In this document: positions 9,891 through 24,897 of the stretch, one piece after another | Layout of the letters: the number at the start of each line of letters is the position of its first letter | Numbering within the stretch: the stretch's first letter is position 1 | Source of the DNA: a virus | Strand: one strand, 5' to 3' | Length of the DNA stretch: 24,897 nucleotides | Virus genome (UHGV): UHGV-0147584 | Program-made: the position numbers and the translations under genes | Notes under the pieces: model-generated | The model's database searches: none | What the model saw: the letters and a program-made list of their open reading frames with translations, nothing else | What the model was told of the DNA's origin: nothing

Positions 9891-12800
9891 TTATTTAGTT
9901 GCTTTCAGTTCGGCAATCTCTTTATGTAATGCTTCGATCTGCGCTTTATATTTGGCGTCCATTTCCTGCATAGCTTTGATGATTAAAGCATTGACAGCAG
10001 AGTTAGAAATAGTCTTGATTGCTTCTGGATGTTCTGGATCTTCGGTAGATTGAATACCTACTGCTTCCGGCAATACTTTTTCCAGATCCTGAGCAATAAT
10101 ACCTACTTCGCGTTTAATTACCGTGTCATCAGAAAGAGATTTAACTTTATCGTAGGTGTATACTTTCAGGGAGTTTACTTTCTCTAATGCACCGTCCTGT
10201 AATTCTTCCTTGTTAATTTTCAGACGAGAGTCAGAGCGAATGTAAACATCGTTAAAGCTACCGTTACGACCTGCCGTCATGTCACCGGATGCGTTAAAGT
10301 CAAAGACGGCATCATGAACATGGAGACGAACAAGAGCGTTACCGATAGTACCGCTAGGAACGTGTACACCCATTGCGGCGATATGATATTTACCTTGATG
10401 GGTTGCTTTCCAGATGTTATGAGCGGAATCGGTTGATTGCTGGCAGTCGACCTGAATACCGGAAGCACGATCACGCCAGCTAGCCCAACTACCACCAGCA
10501 ACGCTACCACGAATAAGACCATTACCGCCACCGGATACAGTGCCCGTTTCAAGGTGAATCATCTTACCGCCGAATTTCCAGACTTCGGCTTGTTTCTCAC
10601 CGCGCATACGCATAACACCAGCATCATCGCAGTACAACAGACCCAACTCTAAGCCGTTTGGATCTCTAAACCATAAATGCTTGTTACCAGTGCGCTTAAA
10701 CTCAATATCAGCACCATTCAGGGTGATATTGCCTCCAGTGTGGATTGCTTTAGGCTTAACAGTACCGTTAATAGCAAACTCGATTAATTCAGTACCAGGA
10801 CCGCCAGCACGTTGGGTATACCAGTGCCAACCGCTTTCATCAGCACATTCAAACACTTGTTTACGAGCATCAGCGCCCCATGCACGAATATTAAACGTAG
10901 AAGTTGCAGTACCTTTACCCCAGCGAATTTGTCCAGCAGCTTCTAAATCACCGAAGAATTTAGTTTTAATCGCACCAGTTGCTAAAGTACGTTCAGTGGT
11001 GAAGTGTGCACCTTTGCTATCGTCAAGCTGTAAGATATTATCACGAGCGTTATTGCTATCGCCCCAATGGTTAAACCGGAAGTAGTCGCGAGAATTTAAT
11101 CGACCAGCATCAAAGGTTAACATTCCTTTACCGACGTAAATATCACCAGCAAATCGAGCAGCACGGCTATCTCGTTCGAGAACTAATGCACCCTCGTTAC
11201 CATCACCACCTAAAGTAACTTTACCAGTCGTCAAATCGTAAATGAATGGTCGGTTGCCGTTCCAGCCACCAAATTTATCATTTTCGGCAGTTGAAAGAAG
11301 ATAAACTTTACCACCATCATTACGCCAGAATGCACCGTAGTTACCGTAAATCATACGGAATGCATCACTGTTAGCAGCTACATATTGTCCGTTTGAGTAA
11401 ACAATTTTTGTTTTACCAGTGGATAATGAAACTTGACCGTTCTCATCCAGTCTTACAGAGTTATTACCTTCCGTTAATTCATTTACTAACTGTACAGTGT
11501 TAGTAGTACCATCACCATAACCTAGATAACCCTGACGACGATTAGCACCAGAACGATAATCAAAGAATTCGATATAGTTACTTTGCCCGTCGCGGCGTTC
11601 CATTCTAATAGCGTTATTACCCTTAACAAAAAGGCGGTTTACAGTAACACCATTAAAATCAATTTTTAATTGATCCGCTGTATCAGTAACACCAGTAGCT
11701 AAACGATAGACACTACCTTCAACAACTTCATGCCAAATTGTTTCGGCTGATTTGCTACGGAATTTACGAAGATATTTTTTATTTGTATCAGTTGAGTTAT
11801 TCAGACTGATAATATCATATGTTCCTTGACCGTTATTATCGAACATCAACGTTCCGGCTTTGTTTTCGGTGTTGAACATCGTAATAACACGAGCATCAGT
11901 AACACCAACAGAAGGTTTAACGAGAGTTAATTCAGGAACATCATGTACTGTTAACGAAACATCACTAGTTTTACCATATTCGACAATAACGTTATCGGTA
12001 TAACGACCGTAGTTTACGTAAATGTCGTAGTTATCACCGGAAGTATTAACCGCAAATACTTGATGGACATTCAAAGAATTTCGACGATAAGCAGCAATAC
12101 TAACGCCTTTCGGGTTATTGTTACCGGAACGGATAACAATTTCTACAAAATCAACCTGATCATAGGAGTTAACGTTATAGCCGTTACCACCGAAGATACG
12201 AAGCATTACCATTCGACCATTCTGTGGGATCGTGGCGGTTGCAATCTTGAAGTATCCACGAGAAGCATCACCAGACGGAACAGACATTTTCACGTTCTTG
12301 ATGAACATCTGGTCAACTGCGGCCTTGCTATACACACCCAATTCATCAGGAGTCGGCTTATCACCTTCATGGTACATGCGATAGCTGAATCTCTTGTTAC
12401 CGTCCTTATCAAAGCCATAGGTTTTAACCTGAGATGAGCTAGACCCATAATGGAACTCAAAGCCGCGACCGTGTGCTTTACCGCCAGAATGAGGAATGTT
12501 AAGGATTAAGTTACCCCAGCCTTCGGCATTGTTCGGACGAAACGCACCAAAATAATCAAGGTTACGAGCACCAGCATCATCAAAATAGTTAGCGGTCTTG
12601 CTTAACAGATAGCCATGATGATAAGTGTTGGTATTCTTCTTGATGTAAAGAGCATCGTTGCTACCTTCAATACCATCAATTCGACGGTTAGCGGCTGCAA
12701 TCGCTGCATCTGCATCGGTCTTGTTTTTGTCTACCTTCGCGTTAATGGCGGTATGATTGCTATTAACAGTGTTGGTTAAGTTGGTGATCTTCGTATCAGC

Positions 12801-13478
12801 GTCTTTCTTGTTATTCGCTACCGTAGTTTCAATGGCTGATTTGTTAGCCGCAACGGTACTCGTTAAGCTGGAGATCTTAGAATCAGCATCAGACTTGTTA
12901 GCTGTAACGGTTTTGGTCATATTGCTAACATTGGTGTTGGTGGCATCAACACGGCTATTGATCGCGGTGTTATTGTCATTAACCGTAGTGGTTAAAGCTG
13001 AGATTTTATTGTCCGCGTCTCGTTTGTTATTCGCTACGGTAGTTTCAATAGCTGATTTGTTTGCCGCAACAGTGTTAGTTAAAGTGGTATGTTTGCTGTC
13101 AGCGTCGGTTTTATTTGCCGTAACTGTCTGGGTTAAGTTACTAACATTGGTGTTAGTAGCATCAATGCGCTTATTGGTTGCTGTATCTTTCGTGTTAATA
13201 GTGTTATTCAGTTCAGATTTAGCGGTAGCCAGAGCGTTAGCAGCTTCGGTTTTATTTGCCGCAATAACACGATCCGTGTTGGTTTTGTTTGTGTCTACTT
13301 TAGTGTTAAGTTCAGCGTGTTTTTCTGGGGAAACGCTGATTTGAACTACTGCGTTATTTTTGTCTTTCGTGTAAATTACGTGGTCGGCAAGGTTAATAGC
13401 TACCTCACCCTGTGCCAGTTGTTCCGGCGTTGGCTTTTTACCAGCCGTCTGTGTGCGTTTAAATTGGATTGATTGCAT
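9891..13478 (-). CDS. side / L-shaped tail fibre with C-terminal intramolecular chaperone (peptidase S74-like) domain
   Basis: 1195-aa ORF. Conserved fibre N-terminus (MQSIQFKRTQTAGKKPTPEQLAQGEVAINLADHVIYTKD), tandem shaft repeats, and a C-terminal ~114 aa beginning RSDSRLK that resembles the autocleaving chaperone of phage T5 pb1 / K1F endosialidase. Stop TAA. Confidence 0.8.
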   Translation of the reverse strand: MQSIQFKRTQTAGKKPTPEQLAQGEVAINLADHVIYTKDKNNAVVQISVSPEKHAELNTKVDTNKTNTDRVIAANKTEAANALATAKSELNNTINTKDTATNKRIDATNTNVSNLTQTVTANKTDADSKHTTLTNTVAANKSAIETTVANNKRDADNKISALTTTVNDNNTAINSRVDATNTNVSNMTKTVTANKSDADSKISSLTSTVAANKSAIETTVANNKKDADTKITNLTNTVNSNHTAINAKVDKNKTDADAAIAAANRRIDGIEGSNDALYIKKNTNTYHHGYLLSKTANYFDDAGARNLDYFGAFRPNNAEGWGNLILNIPHSGGKAHGRGFEFHYGSSSSQVKTYGFDKDGNKRFSYRMYHEGDKPTPDELGVYSKAAVDQMFIKNVKMSVPSGDASRGYFKIATATIPQNGRMVMLRIFGGNGYNVNSYDQVDFVEIVIRSGNNNPKGVSIAAYRRNSLNVHQVFAVNTSGDNYDIYVNYGRYTDNVIVEYGKTSDVSLTVHDVPELTLVKPSVGVTDARVITMFNTENKAGTLMFDNNGQGTYDIISLNNSTDTNKKYLRKFRSKSAETIWHEVVEGSVYRLATGVTDTADQLKIDFNGVTVNRLFVKGNNAIRMERRDGQSNYIEFFDYRSGANRRQGYLGYGDGTTNTVQLVNELTEGNNSVRLDENGQVSLSTGKTKIVYSNGQYVAANSDAFRMIYGNYGAFWRNDGGKVYLLSTAENDKFGGWNGNRPFIYDLTTGKVTLGGDGNEGALVLERDSRAARFAGDIYVGKGMLTFDAGRLNSRDYFRFNHWGDSNNARDNILQLDDSKGAHFTTERTLATGAIKTKFFGDLEAAGQIRWGKGTATSTFNIRAWGADARKQVFECADESGWHWYTQRAGGPGTELIEFAINGTVKPKAIHTGGNITLNGADIEFKRTGNKHLWFRDPNGLELGLLYCDDAGVMRMRGEKQAEVWKFGGKMIHLETGTVSGGGNGLIRGSVAGGSWASWRDRASGIQVDCQQSTDSAHNIWKATHQGKYHIAAMGVHVPSGTIGNALVRLHVHDAVFDFNASGDMTAGRNGSFNDVYIRSDSRLKINKEELQDGALEKVNSLKVYTYDKVKSLSDDTVIKREVGIIAQDLEKVLPEAVGIQSTEDPEHPEAIKTISNSAVNALIIKAMQEMDAKYKAQIEALHKEIAELKATK
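12735..13170 (-). repeat. two tandem ~216-bp (72-aa) repeats in the fibre shaft
   Basis: Protein repeat RIDATNTNVSNLTQTVTANKTDADSKHTTLTNTVAANKSAIETTVANNKRDADNKISALTTTV versus RVDATNTNVSNMTKTVTANKSDADSKISSLTSTVAANKSAIETTVANNKKDADTKITNLTNTV; DNA copies are near-identical over long stretches. Confidence 0.8.
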
Positions 13479-14394: not shown

Positions 14395-14796
14395 TTAAAA
14401 ACGCGCTAGATAAGAAAATTTAAGGCTAAGTGTCCCAACGATACCCCCATCACTAGAATCATCGTCATAATCGGTATTAGAAGCGACTGGAGTTATATCT
14501 GAAATGGAGAAGCCCAAATCTTTAAAACGTGGGTTATCTGGCTGAATCTGGATTATCTGGCAAATACCCTCATGAATTTTGGTTTCATGAATCTGAGAAT
14601 ATAATTGCATTTCGATAACGCATTCAGCTTGCATTGCATTACCACCACGGACCCTAGTGTAAGTCTCATTCATTCCGGTAATCCAACACACCACGTCATC
14701 GCTAAAACCAGTTTGAGTTTGTTCTACGTTTAAAGCCAGACCTAGATCTTGTTCGATAATATCCTGTAAAGCACGTTTAATCTTAAGACGTGGCAT
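14395..14796 (-). CDS. neck / tail-completion protein (hypothetical)
   Basis: ORF frame extends to 14823, but the ATG at 14794-14796 lies 4 nt after the upstream stop (coupled start). Position corresponds to lambda Z/U. Confidence 0.45.
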   Translation of the reverse strand: MPRLKIKRALQDIIEQDLGLALNVEQTQTGFSDDVVCWITGMNETYTRVRGGNAMQAECVIEMQLYSQIHETKIHEGICQIIQIQPDNPRFKDLGFSISDITPVASNTDYDDDSSDGGIVGTLSLKFSYLARF

Positions 14797-19379: not shown

Positions 19380-21284
19380 TTAGAACGATGTTACCCAGCT
19401 ACGGCCTCTATTTGGGCGTCTGGCGATGTTTTTACGTTGTGGTCGTGTGATTGGCTTATTTTCTTCGATTTGCTCGTCAGATTGCGATTTAGGAGCTTTT
19501 ACGGGTTCTTCGACAACACGGTTTAAGCTGTCTTTCATTGCGATGAGTTTATCCCATGACATTTTTGAAAGGACGTAGCGAGAAGCCGCTGTAGCATACA
19601 CGGCGCAGTCGAGCGCCTCGTTCCTAACGCCTGGGTTCTTTACCCATCTCACGCCAGTAGTAGTACGCTTGACAGATTCACTTAAAAGCTGATCGAGATA
19701 ATCATCAGGAACGGTGTCTGATATTTCTAAGCCAATATGAGGATTATCTTTCAGGTTCCTAGCCAACATTTCACGAAATGCAGTTTTACCCACATTAACA
19801 CCCAACATAAGCAATTCATGACCACCTGTGCGGGTAGGTTTAACCGGAATGATCGGAGCGTTACCAGCAGAACTACCTTTGATAGCGTGTAAGTTCTTCC
19901 ACTTGCCGCAAATACGGTATCCAGCTTGAGTGAATCGACCGTTCGATGTATCAAGGAAGCTGGCGAGCATAGGAACACGATCACCCGATACAGTAGTAAA
20001 TCTGGTTTTATGGAAGTTGATTAATCTATCCCATACAGGGGATTCATATCGTTCACAGTTATGATCGTAAAAGCTGCGGTGATCCAGAATATAAATCTTA
20101 TCCTTTGCCACGCCCATGATTGTAGTTTCTGCGCGATCTAATTGCTGGTCAGTACCCGCACACAAGAAAATCACGTCATCAGGGATATTCTCGATAGAAA
20201 CATCTGTTTTGAGTTGTTCCAGTTCATTTGCTTCTACTGCCGTGTCCTGATCGTCGTATACCTTGCCTAACACGGTGTTATAAAATGATTGTAAATCAAA
20301 GGATTGCCACGCATGACTAAAATCAACCACACAAGCGCGGATCGTGCTGAAAGGTGAATACAGACGGCTGATCCAGAATCCTGCTACTTCACTTTCACGG
20401 GTTGCTCTCCACTCGCCTTGTGCTACTGCCCTGATTCGTTCCCCTTCGGTCCATGCGTTCTTACAGTGGGGGCAAATATAACGAGCGGTATCAGGATCGG
20501 GTAAGTTCTTACCATCGATGTTACGCCATTCAAACTGTACGTTTTCCCACTCGATCACCTGGTGTCTACCGCAATGAGGACACGGAACAAAAAACATACG
20601 CATATCACTTGATAACCATTGCTGGTTAATGCTTCCGAGCTTACTGGTCGGGGTACTGGATACGACTAATCGGCCTTCATCGCCAAAGGTAGTTAAACGG
20701 TTAGCAGCCAGTGCCACCGGATCACCTTCTTCTGAGGCTGTAGCAGCATCGATTTCGTCAAGCAATCCAACCTTTGCGGTCTTACCGCGTAGGGTTGATG
20801 GACTAGTAAGCGATACCATATAAAGGAAGTGGTTTGATTTGAGCTGGAGCTGATTGTTGTTATTAACAGAATTGCGATCATTCTTGTCTGTAACCACGTC
20901 TTTTAATGCATCACATGCTTCGATAGACGGTCGGATCTTACCCGCGAGATATTGAGACATTTCTTTAGCGGTTGATTGTCCGATAATCATATTGCATGGA
21001 TCGTTAGCCATCTGGTTAAACAGGATGCCGTTCAAGATGGTAGTCTTTCCGATCTGCGCACTGGTCATCAGAACATACTTTTTCTTGTTCTCAAGGAAAG
21101 GAGCATCAATCATACCTTTCTGGAATGACAGCAATTTAACTTTATCCCCAGCTTGAGGACCATCTACCAGCACCATATTCGCTTCGCACCATTCAGAAGG
21201 AAGGAGCTTAGGCGGTGGCGTAATATATTTGGCTGCATTTTTGAGAATCTTTTTTAATTTGGCCTTATTTGAAATCAGTTTCAT
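19380..21284 (-). CDS. terminase large subunit, lambda gpA family
   Basis: 634-aa ORF. Walker A-like TSAQIGKTT, paired CPHCG...CPHC motifs, [11 protein letters not shown] and [11 protein letters not shown] segments closely resembling lambda gpA as recalled. SD GAGGGT. Stop TAA. Confidence 0.9.
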
Positions 21285-21369
21285 GTAATTACCCTCATTA
21301 CGAAATATGAAGGTATTTATTAAATTGTTGATATTTTGATAAATACGGGTATTAATTAAAGGGGGTTGT
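21285..21369. promoter_or_regulatory. divergent promoter region between terminase and the plus-strand HTH gene
   Basis: 85-bp AT-rich spacer with direct TTGATA repeats, near-palindrome AATACGGGTATT, and TATTAAT upstream of the plus-strand SD AAAGGGGG. No strong consensus promoter toward terminase. Confidence 0.4.
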
Positions 21370-21972
21370 ATGCTAATTAATCAACAACAAAGAGATGAAT
21401 TAGAATTAGCCTTGTCTTGTACCGATCATGAATATCGTTTGCCAGTTAAGCATAAGCATTTAAAAACCGACTACACTACATCTGGCTTTAGTCGTGAGGA
21501 AGCGAAAGAGATTTTAATAGAGTTTTACCGCGATAATGGTTATACAGACGTTCACAACTTCTTTAAGAAGCATAGAACATCACATACAGAGTTTCGGAGA
21601 GTCCGAGATTGGTTTGATTTTGATATCAAGCGTTATTATCGAGTGGATGACGGTCCTATCTATCGGTTGCAGTGGACACCGATCAGGGAAGTGTTGAAAC
21701 AGAAGAGATTGAATCACGCCATTACACGCTATCGTAACGAGGCTTTCAAGAAAGGCTATGGTGATACAAGGGAACTATTCGTTGAACTCGCTAACGTGAA
21801 ATATAGCCACTATTACAACGATCCTACAGGGTTCTTCGAAGTGCTTCGCAAGGTTGATATTAGTCGGGGTACATATTATTCACGGCTGAGGAAGTACGGG
21901 ATTAAGGTAGAGTTCTTTATGTCGGTTGACGACTCACCCATGTTCAAGATAAAATCTAAGTCCTCTAAATAA
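21370..21972 (+). CDS. hypothetical DNA-binding protein with C-terminal HTH-like motif
   Basis: 200-aa ORF with SD AAAGGGGG. C-terminal [20 protein letters not shown] looks like a helix-turn-helix; paralogous to the following small gene. Stop TAA. Confidence 0.5.
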
Positions 21973-22007: not shown

Positions 22008-22235
22008 ATGACTACTAAAGCTACTCGCGGTCGCCCTGCCCGTTTTAACGCTGAACAGATGGCTGATATTGCCTACGCTTACTATACAGCGGATCGTGGT
22101 AAGGAAGCGAAAGAACAGATTCTTAGTGAACATGGGATCTCAATCGCCCAATTCTATAAGAATATGAAGAAGTTAGACATTAAATTCTATGTTCAGATCG
22201 GTGATGGTCAGATCGTAGAAGCAACAGGTTTTTGA
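22008..22235 (+). CDS. small DNA-binding protein (RGRP motif plus HTH-like C-terminus)
   Basis: ATG 22008 is preceded by GGAGGA at 7 nt (the ORF track begins at an upstream TTG). Sequence MTTKATRGRPARF...HGISIAQFYKNMKKLDIKF. Stop TGA. Confidence 0.5.
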   Translation: MTTKATRGRPARFNAEQMADIAYAYYTADRGKEAKEQILSEHGISIAQFYKNMKKLDIKFYVQIGDGQIVEATGF

Positions 22236-22250
22236 GTTTTGATTCTCTTT

Positions 22251-22280
22251 GCCACTCTTCGGAGTGGCTTTTTTGTATGT
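22251..22280 (+). terminator. intrinsic terminator (plus strand)
   Basis: GCCACUC-uucg-GAGUGGC followed by UUUUUUGUAUGU, 15 nt after the stop of the small plus-strand gene. Confidence 0.75.
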
Positions 22281-22395
22281 AAAACAATCGGCGCAAAACT
22301 GCGCTCATTTCTAAGTTGAGTCCAAATCTGGACTGATCTATAGATGCATCCAAATCTGGAGGGATGCGCTTAAAGTTCAGCGCATCTACAGATAC

Positions 22396-22420
22396 AAAAA
22401 AGCCCCTGAAATTCAGGGGC
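22396..22420 (-). terminator. intrinsic terminator (minus strand) after the Rha-like gene
   Basis: Minus-strand RNA GCCCCUGAA-u-UUCAGGGGC followed by UUUUUUGUAUCU. Confidence 0.7.
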
Positions 22421-22428
22421 AAAAATTA

Positions 22429-23256
22429 TTACAGTCCGAAGACTTCCAGAGAGCCAGCATTCTGACGAATCAGCAAAGCAGTGTTATTAATGATTGCTCG
22501 TGAGTTGTTCGGCTGTGGCAATTTCAAAGTTGCGGCCTTTTCTTCTTCAAGCAATCCGAGTTTTACGAGATGCGGGATAGCATCAGCAGTGAACTCGATC
22601 TGACCGTGTGCCGACATACGAGCGAACATATAGCCAGGAGGAAGCAGATCATAGCCTTTAGGCTTACCAGAAGCATCCAGACGACGCTCAAGAACACCAG
22701 CAGCACATAAACCTTTCAGAATCATTTGTACCGTCGTAGAGCCTCGTTTTTCGCCTAATAAGCGGCTAAGACTGTGTGTGTCGATAGCTTTACGAACATG
22801 CAATTCAACCAGTTGTTTCTTTTCTTGAATCAGTTGTTCGTTTGCGGCTTCCAATTCCATTGCCTCACGAATCCAGTCGAGCTTAGTCATGTTTGCGTAA
22901 GGGTTGATTTGCTGAGAACGCAGTTTTTCATTTTCTTCTTTCAGTCGCTTCCATTCCTGAATAACAACCATTCGACGCTTAACATCGTAACCAGTGACAA
23001 GAGTCAGCGTCATTTCTTCGTCTAAGTGATATTCGGTTTGTTCACGTCCACACTGATCAAGATAGGTGCGCTCAAAACTGAGCACATCTAATTCCAGAGC
23101 ATCGAGCATGGATTTAATATCACGTTTAACGTTTTTGTGTTCTTTTCCGGTAAATTCAGCGATCTGACGAGAAGACATGGTCAGCGGTTTGGTGTTATCA
23201 ACAACCAGAGACACGGAAGCAGTTTTAGCAGTATTCATAACGGTAACAGTATTCAT
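22429..23256 (-). CDS. phage regulatory protein Rha / antirepressor
   Basis: N-terminal SSRQIAEFTGKEHKNVKRDIKSML...TLVTGYDVKRRMVVIQEWKRL matches the Rha-family signature as recalled; coiled-coil middle and a C-terminal domain of unknown function. SD AAGGGGAA. Stop TAA. Confidence 0.75.
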   Translation of the reverse strand: MNTVTVMNTAKTASVSLVVDNTKPLTMSSRQIAEFTGKEHKNVKRDIKSMLDALELDVLSFERTYLDQCGREQTEYHLDEEMTLTLVTGYDVKRRMVVIQEWKRLKEENEKLRSQQINPYANMTKLDWIREAMELEAANEQLIQEKKQLVELHVRKAIDTHSLSRLLGEKRGSTTVQMILKGLCAAGVLERRLDASGKPKGYDLLPPGYMFARMSAHGQIEFTADAIPHLVKLGLLEEEKAATLKLPQPNNSRAIINNTALLIRQNAGSLEVFGL

Positions 23257-23798: not shown

Positions 23799-24251
23799 TT
23801 ACAGCATATCTAAGCCTTCATCGTAACCGTAGAAGCCATTCTGAGAAGAGAAACAGATTGGCGCGTAGTCGTCGTCATCTTCGTCTTGTTCATCTCGTTC
23901 TGGGGCTTCCTGAGCGGGTTGTTTACCATAATCAGCCATAATCTGGTCAAGATCGGCGATCCCATAGTAAGAGCCTAAATCAACGTCATATTCACGAACA
24001 TCAAACGGCAGGTCATCACGAACAATAATTGCCGGAATGTTGTTGTATTGTTCACGACCTTCATCAGTAAAGCAGTCTACGATCACCGTAGGGCGACCAT
24101 TACGTTTAAGAGCATAGAAAGCAGTTGAGAAATTGGAGTCTTCGGAATGACGAATGATGTTATAACCACGATTAGCGAAAACATGCATCATAGCCAGATT
24201 ATCATCATGGTTCAGACCCAGAAGAATGAAAGGAGTTTTAGTATTGATCAT
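23799..24251 (-). CDS. hypothetical protein with strongly acidic C-terminal tail
   Basis: 150-aa ORF, SD AGAGGA. Alternating hydrophobic strands (FILLGL, YNIIRH, TVIVDCF, AIIVRD) suggest an alpha/beta fold; C-terminal ERDEQDEDDDDY. No family recognised. Confidence 0.5.
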   Translation of the reverse strand: MINTKTPFILLGLNHDDNLAMMHVFANRGYNIIRHSEDSNFSTAFYALKRNGRPTVIVDCFTDEGREQYNNIPAIIVRDDLPFDVREYDVDLGSYYGIADLDQIMADYGKQPAQEAPERDEQDEDDDDYAPICFSSQNGFYGYDEGLDML

Positions 24252-24502
24252 AGTGGAAATCCTCTAAAAAAGTGAATCAAAGTAAGTTCACTATTATTTA
24301 TAACGAGAAATTTTTGTCTAATTTGAAAGGAATTGGTATTCAGTCGGCTTCGCCTCCTTCATAGATTTTGATTAAATCATCATCAAAACGAAGAAGTATC
24401 TTTAGAATATAAGAATCTTTCTTTTGGAGAAATAATAATCAGGAAGCAATTTAGCAACCGAAGGTTGCAATCCCGAAGGGATACCAATACCTTTCATGAT
24501 CA

Positions 24503-24750
24503 TTAAAGTGATCTAGAATCATCTAGTAACCAGTTAACTACTATTATCTTCAAAGTGATTATTACTATCTTTCTAGAATCAGTTAGTAACTAATTTAAAA
24601 TCCCTTTCAAGAAAATCCTTTCAGAAGTGATTCTCGATGCCACGCAGTGGCGTCGCAGACGTTTGAGAGTGAGCGAAGCGAGCGAGCAAACTAGTTAATT
24701 CCTTCTAAGACCATCTAGTATCATCTAGTTTAAATTAGTGTTACTAGAAG
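24503..24750. repeat. iteron-like direct and inverted repeats built on CTAG cores in noncoding DNA
   Basis: aaagtgatctagaatcatctagtaac (24505-24530), aaagtgatt...tctagaatcagttagtaac (24552-24590), atctagtatcatctagtt..gttactag (24713-24746), plus palindromes GTTAAC and AACTAGTT. No ORF in the track covers this region. Confidence 0.6.
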
Positions 24751-24897
24751 TAATTGGTTAGCGCTTCGCGCAGTCGGGCTACGCCCTCCTAATATCTTTT
24801 TGGTTATTTGTTGTTTTTGGTTTTACACATGAGCGTAGCGAATGTGTTATATAATATCTATGCACGCCCGATCCCCCGTTTTTGCCCCTCACTAAGT

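Follow-up and report, generated by a model that had tools for sequence, protein, structure and literature searches.

Inside its own gene and beside an integration host factor (IHF) site, the Roi protein of phage HK022 reportedly finds its binding site, a description said to go back to Clerget and Boccard in 1996 (J Bacteriol 178:4077). A comparable arrangement is carried by UHGV virus genome UHGV-0147584, the 24,897-nt stretch of DNA analyzed here in full (the window), which has a gene of the Rha family (PF09669), a very common and poorly understood family of phage regulators that is usually annotated only as 'antirepressor', and, beyond the terminator of that gene, a palindrome-packed island at 22281-22395. 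Comparison of the sequences makes it a well supported reading that the island is a head-to-tail array of four dyad-symmetric units of about 26 bp, copied from the palindrome segment of Rha genes. In the HK022 roi gene, CTGCATTGCAG lies at nt 130, which corresponds to the gene position of the palindromes in the Rha genes, and is followed after 11 nt by a perfect IHF consensus; Roi-type N-domains occur among the alleles at the locus of the island. The two systems thus share a helix-turn-helix (HTH) regulator of the Roi/Rha/Ant group, a site in the coding sequence of the regulator and an adjacent IHF site, while they differ in that HK022 has one intragenic site and the present locus has extra copies beyond the terminator, in variable number and of foreign types, with the IHF-site modules lost from the island of the window.

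The HTH repressors of the 434 type and the lambdoid immunity types use 14-bp operators that lie at promoters and match the resident repressor. The sites described here resemble these operators in the 5+4+5 layout with a conserved inner part and an A/T-rich, uncontacted central 4 bp, and in that changes of the half-site are matched by changes of the recognition helix and define specificity groups, but the island array sits between two terminators and matches other alleles. In phage lambda, ori consists of four tandem iterons inside gene O which act as a replication origin, and there too dyad-symmetric repeats lie in the coding sequence of their binder, and site and N-terminal domain change together. 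In contrast to lambda ori, Rha genes carry one internal site rather than four, the tandem array lies between genes and is heterotypic, and nothing ties Rha to replication.

The Rha gene and the parts of it that bear on the island are as follows.

22429-23256, minus strand: Rha-family regulator or 'antirepressor' gene, 275 aa (Pfam PF09669, E 8.8e-14; PHROG anti-repressor families)
23098-23139, minus strand: predicted recognition-helix codons, H40-K-N-V-K-R-D-I-K-S-M-L-D-A53 (AlphaFold2 model)
23064-23089 (core 23070-23083), no strand assigned: intragenic palindrome, GCTCA-AAAC-TGAGC, encoding residues 57-63, D-V-L-S-F-E-R

For comparison, 45 loci were collected, namely the window, 33 IMG/VR contigs, 10 NCBI genomes and one duplicate E. 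coli record. Five alleles of the Rha gene each have a different perfect palindrome at the same position, encoding VLSFER, ESKFGR, RNFA, ALKSQR and HAKFRV, respectively. When 22-24-mers of the Rha gene were slid against all islands, a match was seen at the palindrome segment only, with 20 to 22 of 24 identities in comparison to a background of 13.9±1.3 (z 5-6), and this was the case for 9 alleles, including ones that have the IHF consensus in place of a simple hairpin. The island copies, of about 25-45 nt, are mostly in gene orientation, and parts of the gene other than the operator, with or without the IHF site, were never found in the islands. The four units of the window island are listed below, none of them with a strand assigned.

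22285-22310: Op1, CAATCG-GCGCA-AAAC-TGCGC-TCATTT; perfect 5+4+5 core, half-site GCGCA
22314-22339: Op2, AGTTG-AGTCCA-AATC-TGGACT-GATCT; perfect core, half-site GTCCA
22342-22367: Op3, AGATG-CATCCA-AATC-TGGAGG-GATGC; half-site ATCCA, 4 of 5 positions pair
22362-22387: Op4, GGATG-CGCTTA-AAGT-TCAGCG-CATCT; half-site GCTGA, 4 of 5 pair, with an inner mismatch

The unit centers are spaced by 29, 28 and 20 bp, and the units follow the grammar (AGATG)-NNNCA-N4-TGNNN-(CATCT), in which the flanks are Asp and Ile codons. The dyad of 5+4+5 with an inner CA..TG (or GA..TC) and an A/T-rich 4-bp center was found in the island units, and 14 of 20 distinct units across the islands are perfect palindromes. Op1 is identical to the ant segment of locus L038 at 22 of 24 positions, and its half-site is the type of 'H-K-D-V' recognition helices (RNFA sister alleles), while that of Op2, whose spacer is flipped (GATT) in L039, L056 and L058, is the type of 'H-K/Q-H-V' helices (SKFG sister alleles). 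The left arm of Op3 is identical to the operator arm GATGCATCCA of the 'H-F-H-V' type (L176, L189), and its right arm is shortened and fused to Op4. Apart from a single mismatch in its inner part, Op4 copies the operator of the LKSQ allele, GATGCGCTGA-AATC-TCAGCGCATCT, and the cognate helix type in the survey of Rha genes is K-N with V-K-A-D. Cognate helices therefore exist in the survey for all four half-sites, and Op1, Op2 and Op4 are operator types of sister alleles at the same locus in other E. coli strains. The own half-site type of the phage, GCTCA, was found in none of the four units; its only occurrence in the window is GCTCAAAACTGAGC at 23070-23083, inside the Rha gene. The IHF consensus WATCAANNNNTTR is also absent from the window island.

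The palindrome is not restricted to this locus. It also occurs in the Rha genes of Vibrio, Salmonella, Klebsiella, Pseudomonas, Iodobacter and Oceanospirillum phages and of 80 IMG/VR contigs, where it lies about 61 nt downstream of the codon for the His with which the helix H-x1-x2-V-x-R-D-I begins. Among 72 distinct Rha genes, perfect stems of at least 5 bp with a 4-nt center numbered 42 in two adjacent 10-nt bins and 0 to 7 in each of the other bins; 41 of the 72 genes have a perfect palindrome, and in nearly all others 4 of 5 positions pair. Codons that face each other in the stem are reverse complements (CTC/GAG, CCC/GGG, TCC/GGA, CGC/GCG), and the reading-frame phase of the palindrome varies in some genes, which together indicate that the constraint is on the nucleic acid and that a constraint on the protein cannot explain the palindrome. 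The other phages sampled have the single intragenic site only, and no additional own-type operator was found within ±400 nt in 42 other phages. In three IMG/VR Rha genes (L123, L170, L173), a second palindrome of operator grammar (GCGCAAAACTGCGC or GCGCAGCAATGCGC) was observed exactly 98 nt downstream of the first one, still inside the gene.

The half-site follows the recognition helix closely. In 62 sequences, helix residue x2 fully predicts position 3 of the half-site in both arms, with a mutual information of 1.38 of 1.38 bits, in comparison to 0.01 to 0.43 bits for the other variable columns within ±40 nt. The correspondence at position 3 is N→T, H→C and D→G, and T→A was seen in one gene outside the set used for mutual information. 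In addition, residue x1 tracks half-site positions 4-5, and when the Arg of the helix, which would read C at position 2, is replaced, CA..TG always becomes GA..TC. The AlphaFold2 model (mean predicted local distance difference test score, pLDDT, 90.7) has a helix, a turn, a helix starting exactly at the His, with the covarying residues at its beginning, and then a beta-hairpin wing, and fold searches gave weak matches only, mostly to winged-helix, MerR-like and APSES-type DNA-binding domains. The covariation of half-site and helix is well supported, and since the half-site bases covary completely with the recognition-helix residues, the palindrome is most likely the autogenous operator of the Rha protein itself, in agreement with the arrangement reported for HK022 Roi. 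Such an operator would have a 5+4+5 layout with an A/T-rich center that is not contacted, and its binder would be a dimer of the winged helix-turn-helix domain whose codons directly precede it. If this holds in general, each Rha gene would carry a probable operator in its own coding sequence with a half-site readable from two or three helix residues, and the code would serve to predict the binding sites and specificity groups of thousands of phages. Our search of the literature on Rha, Roi and palindromes brought up no account of either the intragenic palindrome or arrays of this kind.

The place of the island between two terminators is given by the following features.

22251-22278, plus strand: terminator of the 75-aa gene (22008-22235); stem GCCACTC-TTCG-GAGTGGC (22251-22268), then TTTTTTGTAT
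22386-22395, no strand assigned: constant junction CTACAGATAC adjoining the right terminator, from the locus comparison
22396-22420, minus strand: terminator of the Rha gene; GCCCCTGAA-T-TTCAGGGGC (stem 22420-22402), then TTTTTTGTAT on the minus strand

The first-pass annotation of the window had described 22281-22395 as packed with palindromes between two convergent terminators, and both points were borne out, in that both stems and T runs were located and each palindrome it had named was found where it had placed it: GCGCAAAACTGCGC at 22291-22304, TCCAAATCTGGA at 22321-22332 and 22349-22360, ATCTATAGAT at 22336-22345, GATGCATC at 22343-22350, and GATGCGC-ttaaagttca-GCGCATC at 22363-22386. 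In relatives, a different stem, GGCCAATCC-TTCG-GGGTTGGCC, occupies the position of the plus-strand terminator. Palindrome density was measured as the number of nucleotides in perfect stems with 5 bp or more. It was 81 of 115 nt for the island, whereas 500 dinucleotide shuffles gave 14.1±13.5 and never attained 81; the island has the top palindrome score of all 115-nt stretches in the window. Two mechanically called open reading frames cross it (22180-22422, minus strand, and 22364-22465, plus strand), which cannot be conserved genes because many relatives lack the island.

It had also been proposed that the island might be a small independently transcribed RNA, to which a REP-like stabilizer of a 3' untranslated region made of several hairpins can be added. 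The strong folding (z of -5.25 for the plus-strand RNA, -5.02 for the minus-strand RNA and -5.25 for the plus strand as DNA) agrees with an RNA, as does a weak terminator-like hairpin on the minus strand at 22304-22291, and read-through from either flanking gene would take in the island. However, the two strands fold equally, as expected of plain DNA palindromes, and the Watson-Crick palindromes that form the stems show no strand asymmetry; no promoter-like site was found inside the island, no Rfam family reached its gathering score, and a permissive search gave sub-threshold matches over the terminators only. A third of the relatives lack the island, so that the conservation expected of an RNA gene is missing as well, and the units of HK022 type have a center of 1 nt (CTGCA-T-TGCAG), which suits duplex DNA and not a hairpin. 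We thus regard an RNA as very improbable, and the proposal found no support. No tRNA was found in the island. Antisense immunity of the P1 c4/ant kind was also rejected, as there is no promoter and the unit types are unrelated to the allele of the phage itself.

The comparison of the 45 loci showed that the island is dispensable and fast-changing. Measured from the T run of the left terminator to the A run of the right terminator, the spacer occurs in 25 versions of 14 to 247 nt. Thirteen loci keep only 14-15 nt similar to ATACCTACAGATAC, in either orientation, and the two orientations of the 14-mer are exact reverse complements, i.e., the sequence is flipped between the inverted T6/A6 tails; the junction at 22386-22395 is the sole part of the window island that these 'empty' relatives retain. 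The other versions are assembled from interchangeable modules of about 20-45 nt, and the differences between close relatives involve whole modules, insertions flanked by short direct repeats (TGTAGG, L031 in comparison to L032) and flipped spacers such as AGTCC-AAATCT-GGACT and AGTCC-AGATTT-GGACT. The array changes rapidly, as modules are gained and lost between short repeats and palindrome spacers are flipped. Small hairpin-loop inversions and quasi-palindrome template switching are known from chloroplast spacers and from mutagenesis studies in E. coli, and the spacer flips with unchanged arms and the inversion of the 14-mer between terminator tails are of the same kind; these processes explain how the island varies, but not why it is made only of operator copies. 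One to three copies of the IHF consensus were found in the islands of L039, L052, L053, L056 and L057. L052 and L056 have three each, with three sites falling within 247 nt and all of them in gene orientation, against a chance expectation of about 0.004, and the L052 island has CTGCAATACAG, 11 nt and AATCAATAGGTTA, the palindrome-11 nt-IHF layout of HK022 roi. No relation was found across loci between the content of the island and the resident Rha allele.

The empty and hypervariable loci exclude a cos, pac or partition site or another essential site. A site of this type for the lambda-type terminase had some appeal, since a GpA-type terminase lies 1 kb away with no adjacent small-subunit gene and the quasi-symmetric center ATCTATAGAT resembles cosN, but relatives that share the terminase, the portal and the flanking genes with the window lack the island entirely, and a better candidate lies directly upstream of the terminase gene (21241-21375). 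We give an essential cis machine next to no probability, and a cos site in particular was ruled out by these island-less relatives. The packaging, recombination or partition function suggested in the first-pass annotation is unsupported on the same ground, and the absence or lack of conservation in close relatives, which it had named as evidence against itself, was found as far as an essential cis site is concerned, with 13 of the 45 loci empty and the rest hypervariable.

The modular array, the variable copy number, the CTAYAG/TA-like junctions of modules and the copy in coding sequence would also agree with a miniature mobile palindromic element (REP/BIME-, MITE- or RPE-like) that has in addition inserted in frame in the Rha gene. 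Enterobacterial REP/BIME sequences are GC-rich families with hundreds of dispersed copies, and they likewise form clusters of short palindromes between convergent genes with a copy number that varies by strain. The island units in contrast occur once per genome at the prophage locus and derive from a phage gene. With a 247-nt island as query, the median was one place per E. coli genome, at the prophage locus, and 101 of 5426 genomes had any match at E up to 1, so no dispersed family exists, and a host REP-like family was ruled out by this E. coli-wide search. Moreover, the intragenic copy is no insertion; in unrelated phages it is an ancient component of the Rha domain with a fixed position. 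A mobile element is thus, in our estimate, highly unlikely.

Silent donor cassettes for gene conversion of the variable patch of Rha, similar to tprK, pilS and vls, were considered since the units are incomplete copies of the segment that varies most in the gene, lie downstream of it in gene orientation and represent several allelic types. The recognition helix, 60 nt upstream of the palindrome, is however left out of the units, and conversion would uncouple protein and site; as site and helix have to change in step and the units hold no helix, we consider the donor role hardly probable. The shared flanks are only 5-7 nt, units of the own allele are not enriched, and the units differ from live alleles at 2 to 4 of 24 nt.

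For the island as a whole, we lean towards a cluster of operator-type sites copied from Rha genes and bound by matching Rha-type proteins, a reading which we consider somewhat better than an even guess. Rha-type proteins of matching specificity, supplied by sibling or co-resident phages, would bind the array, and the Rha protein of the phage itself would bind at most weakly, through the shared CA-N4-TG core. Binding between the convergent terminators might then act as a decoy, a sensor or a roadblock. The first-pass annotation was right about the kind of element when it suggested a protein-binding site, as the units copy the Rha palindrome and follow its grammar, but not about the binders, for which it had proposed the left-hand HTH proteins or the terminase; these are unsupported, and the likely binder family is encoded on the right (Rha, 22429-23256). 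A more specific version, in which the island is a panel of operators for the Rha proteins of rival phages that serves as decoy or sensor between the regulatory genes and the packaging/late operon, is in our view doubtful; if true, it would represent inter-phage interference or eavesdropping by means of collected foreign binding sites. What appears to be new is the collection of foreign-type operator copies outside the gene, as the operator-type sites themselves are of a known kind. A phage that keeps the sites of other alleles may mean either that related prophages engage in cross-talk or that short functional sites are copied by a new route.

Several observations weigh against bound operator copies. 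The dispensability of the island suggests relaxed constraint, no unit is of the phage's own type, the mismatch in Op4 is inherited uncorrected in all carriers, and a TGGAC->TTGAC change in Op2 is inherited uncorrected in five loci. The same observations, together with the hypervariability, are in favor of the main rival, in which the units are functionless, decaying debris, i.e., patches of Rha genes from different phages dropped at the terminator junction by illegitimate or template-switch recombination, with palindromes as the pieces most prone to such copying. The flips of the AAATCT/AGATTT spacer and of the 14-mer, which indicate palindrome instability at the DNA level, and the insertions and deletions bounded by the TGTAGG direct repeats agree with debris as well. 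On the other hand, the islands hold only the operator part of the gene, with or without the IHF site, most units have a perfect core, the palindrome-11 nt-IHF layout is preserved, and no known process carries 30-nt patches 650 bp downstream in a fixed orientation. Debris is a serious possibility which we nevertheless regard as the less likely one, and the cluster of Rha-type operator copies remains the explanation we prefer.

The window belongs to an E. coli prophage of about 36 kb, which sits in hicB, encodes a large serine recombinase, carries one Rha gene only, and occurs in 54 of 5,426 complete E. coli genomes; no DNA match was found in the phage collection. In E. coli UTME-9 (L197, NZ_CP157110.1 2773290-2809515), the prophage of about 36 kb splits hicB and lacks recognizable genes for replication or for a CI-type repressor, a gene content that is unusual for a temperate phage. 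The minus strand of the window encodes the lambda-type large terminase (19380-21284), a head-tail joining protein, a lambda-family portal and structural genes. The plus strand has two genes (21370-21972 and 22008-22235, 200 and 75 aa) without Pfam or PHROG family, whose products share a short repeated motif and could possibly act as small terminase or as regulator; about 2,900 assembly blocks encode the 75-aa protein without any change in sequence.

Some further features of the window were observed. No small-subunit gene lies beside the large terminase on its own strand. The divergent intergenic region between the terminase and 200-aa genes (21241-21375) is the second most palindrome-dense stretch of the window, with one of the only two IHF-consensus matches in the window at 21321-21333 (minus strand), and it is a better candidate than the island for cos or late-promoter functions. 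The stretch at 24251-24897, which continues as L197 36561-38055, is gene-less, with about 1.5 kb unannotated in E. coli UTME-9; it has repeated motifs of the CATCTAG/CTAGTAAC type, GC-rich hairpins and, at 24513, the palindrome CTAGAATCATCTAG, which shows conservation across many relatives. The stretch may serve as a regulatory region or an origin, or it may encode a long non-coding RNA. A tRNA-Gln gene (anticodon ttg) lies at 14540-14630 on the plus strand within a run of minus-strand structural-gene open reading frames, and a perfect 20-nt palindrome, TACTAACATTGGTGTTAGTA, lies at 13139-13158 inside the large tail-fiber open reading frame (9891-13478, minus strand). The closest large terminase in the phage collection, at 44% identity and of lambda gpA type, is that of L001 (PQ671644.1, 'Escherichia phage DCP80'), a 141-kb record filed under Straboviridae which may be chimeric or misclassified.
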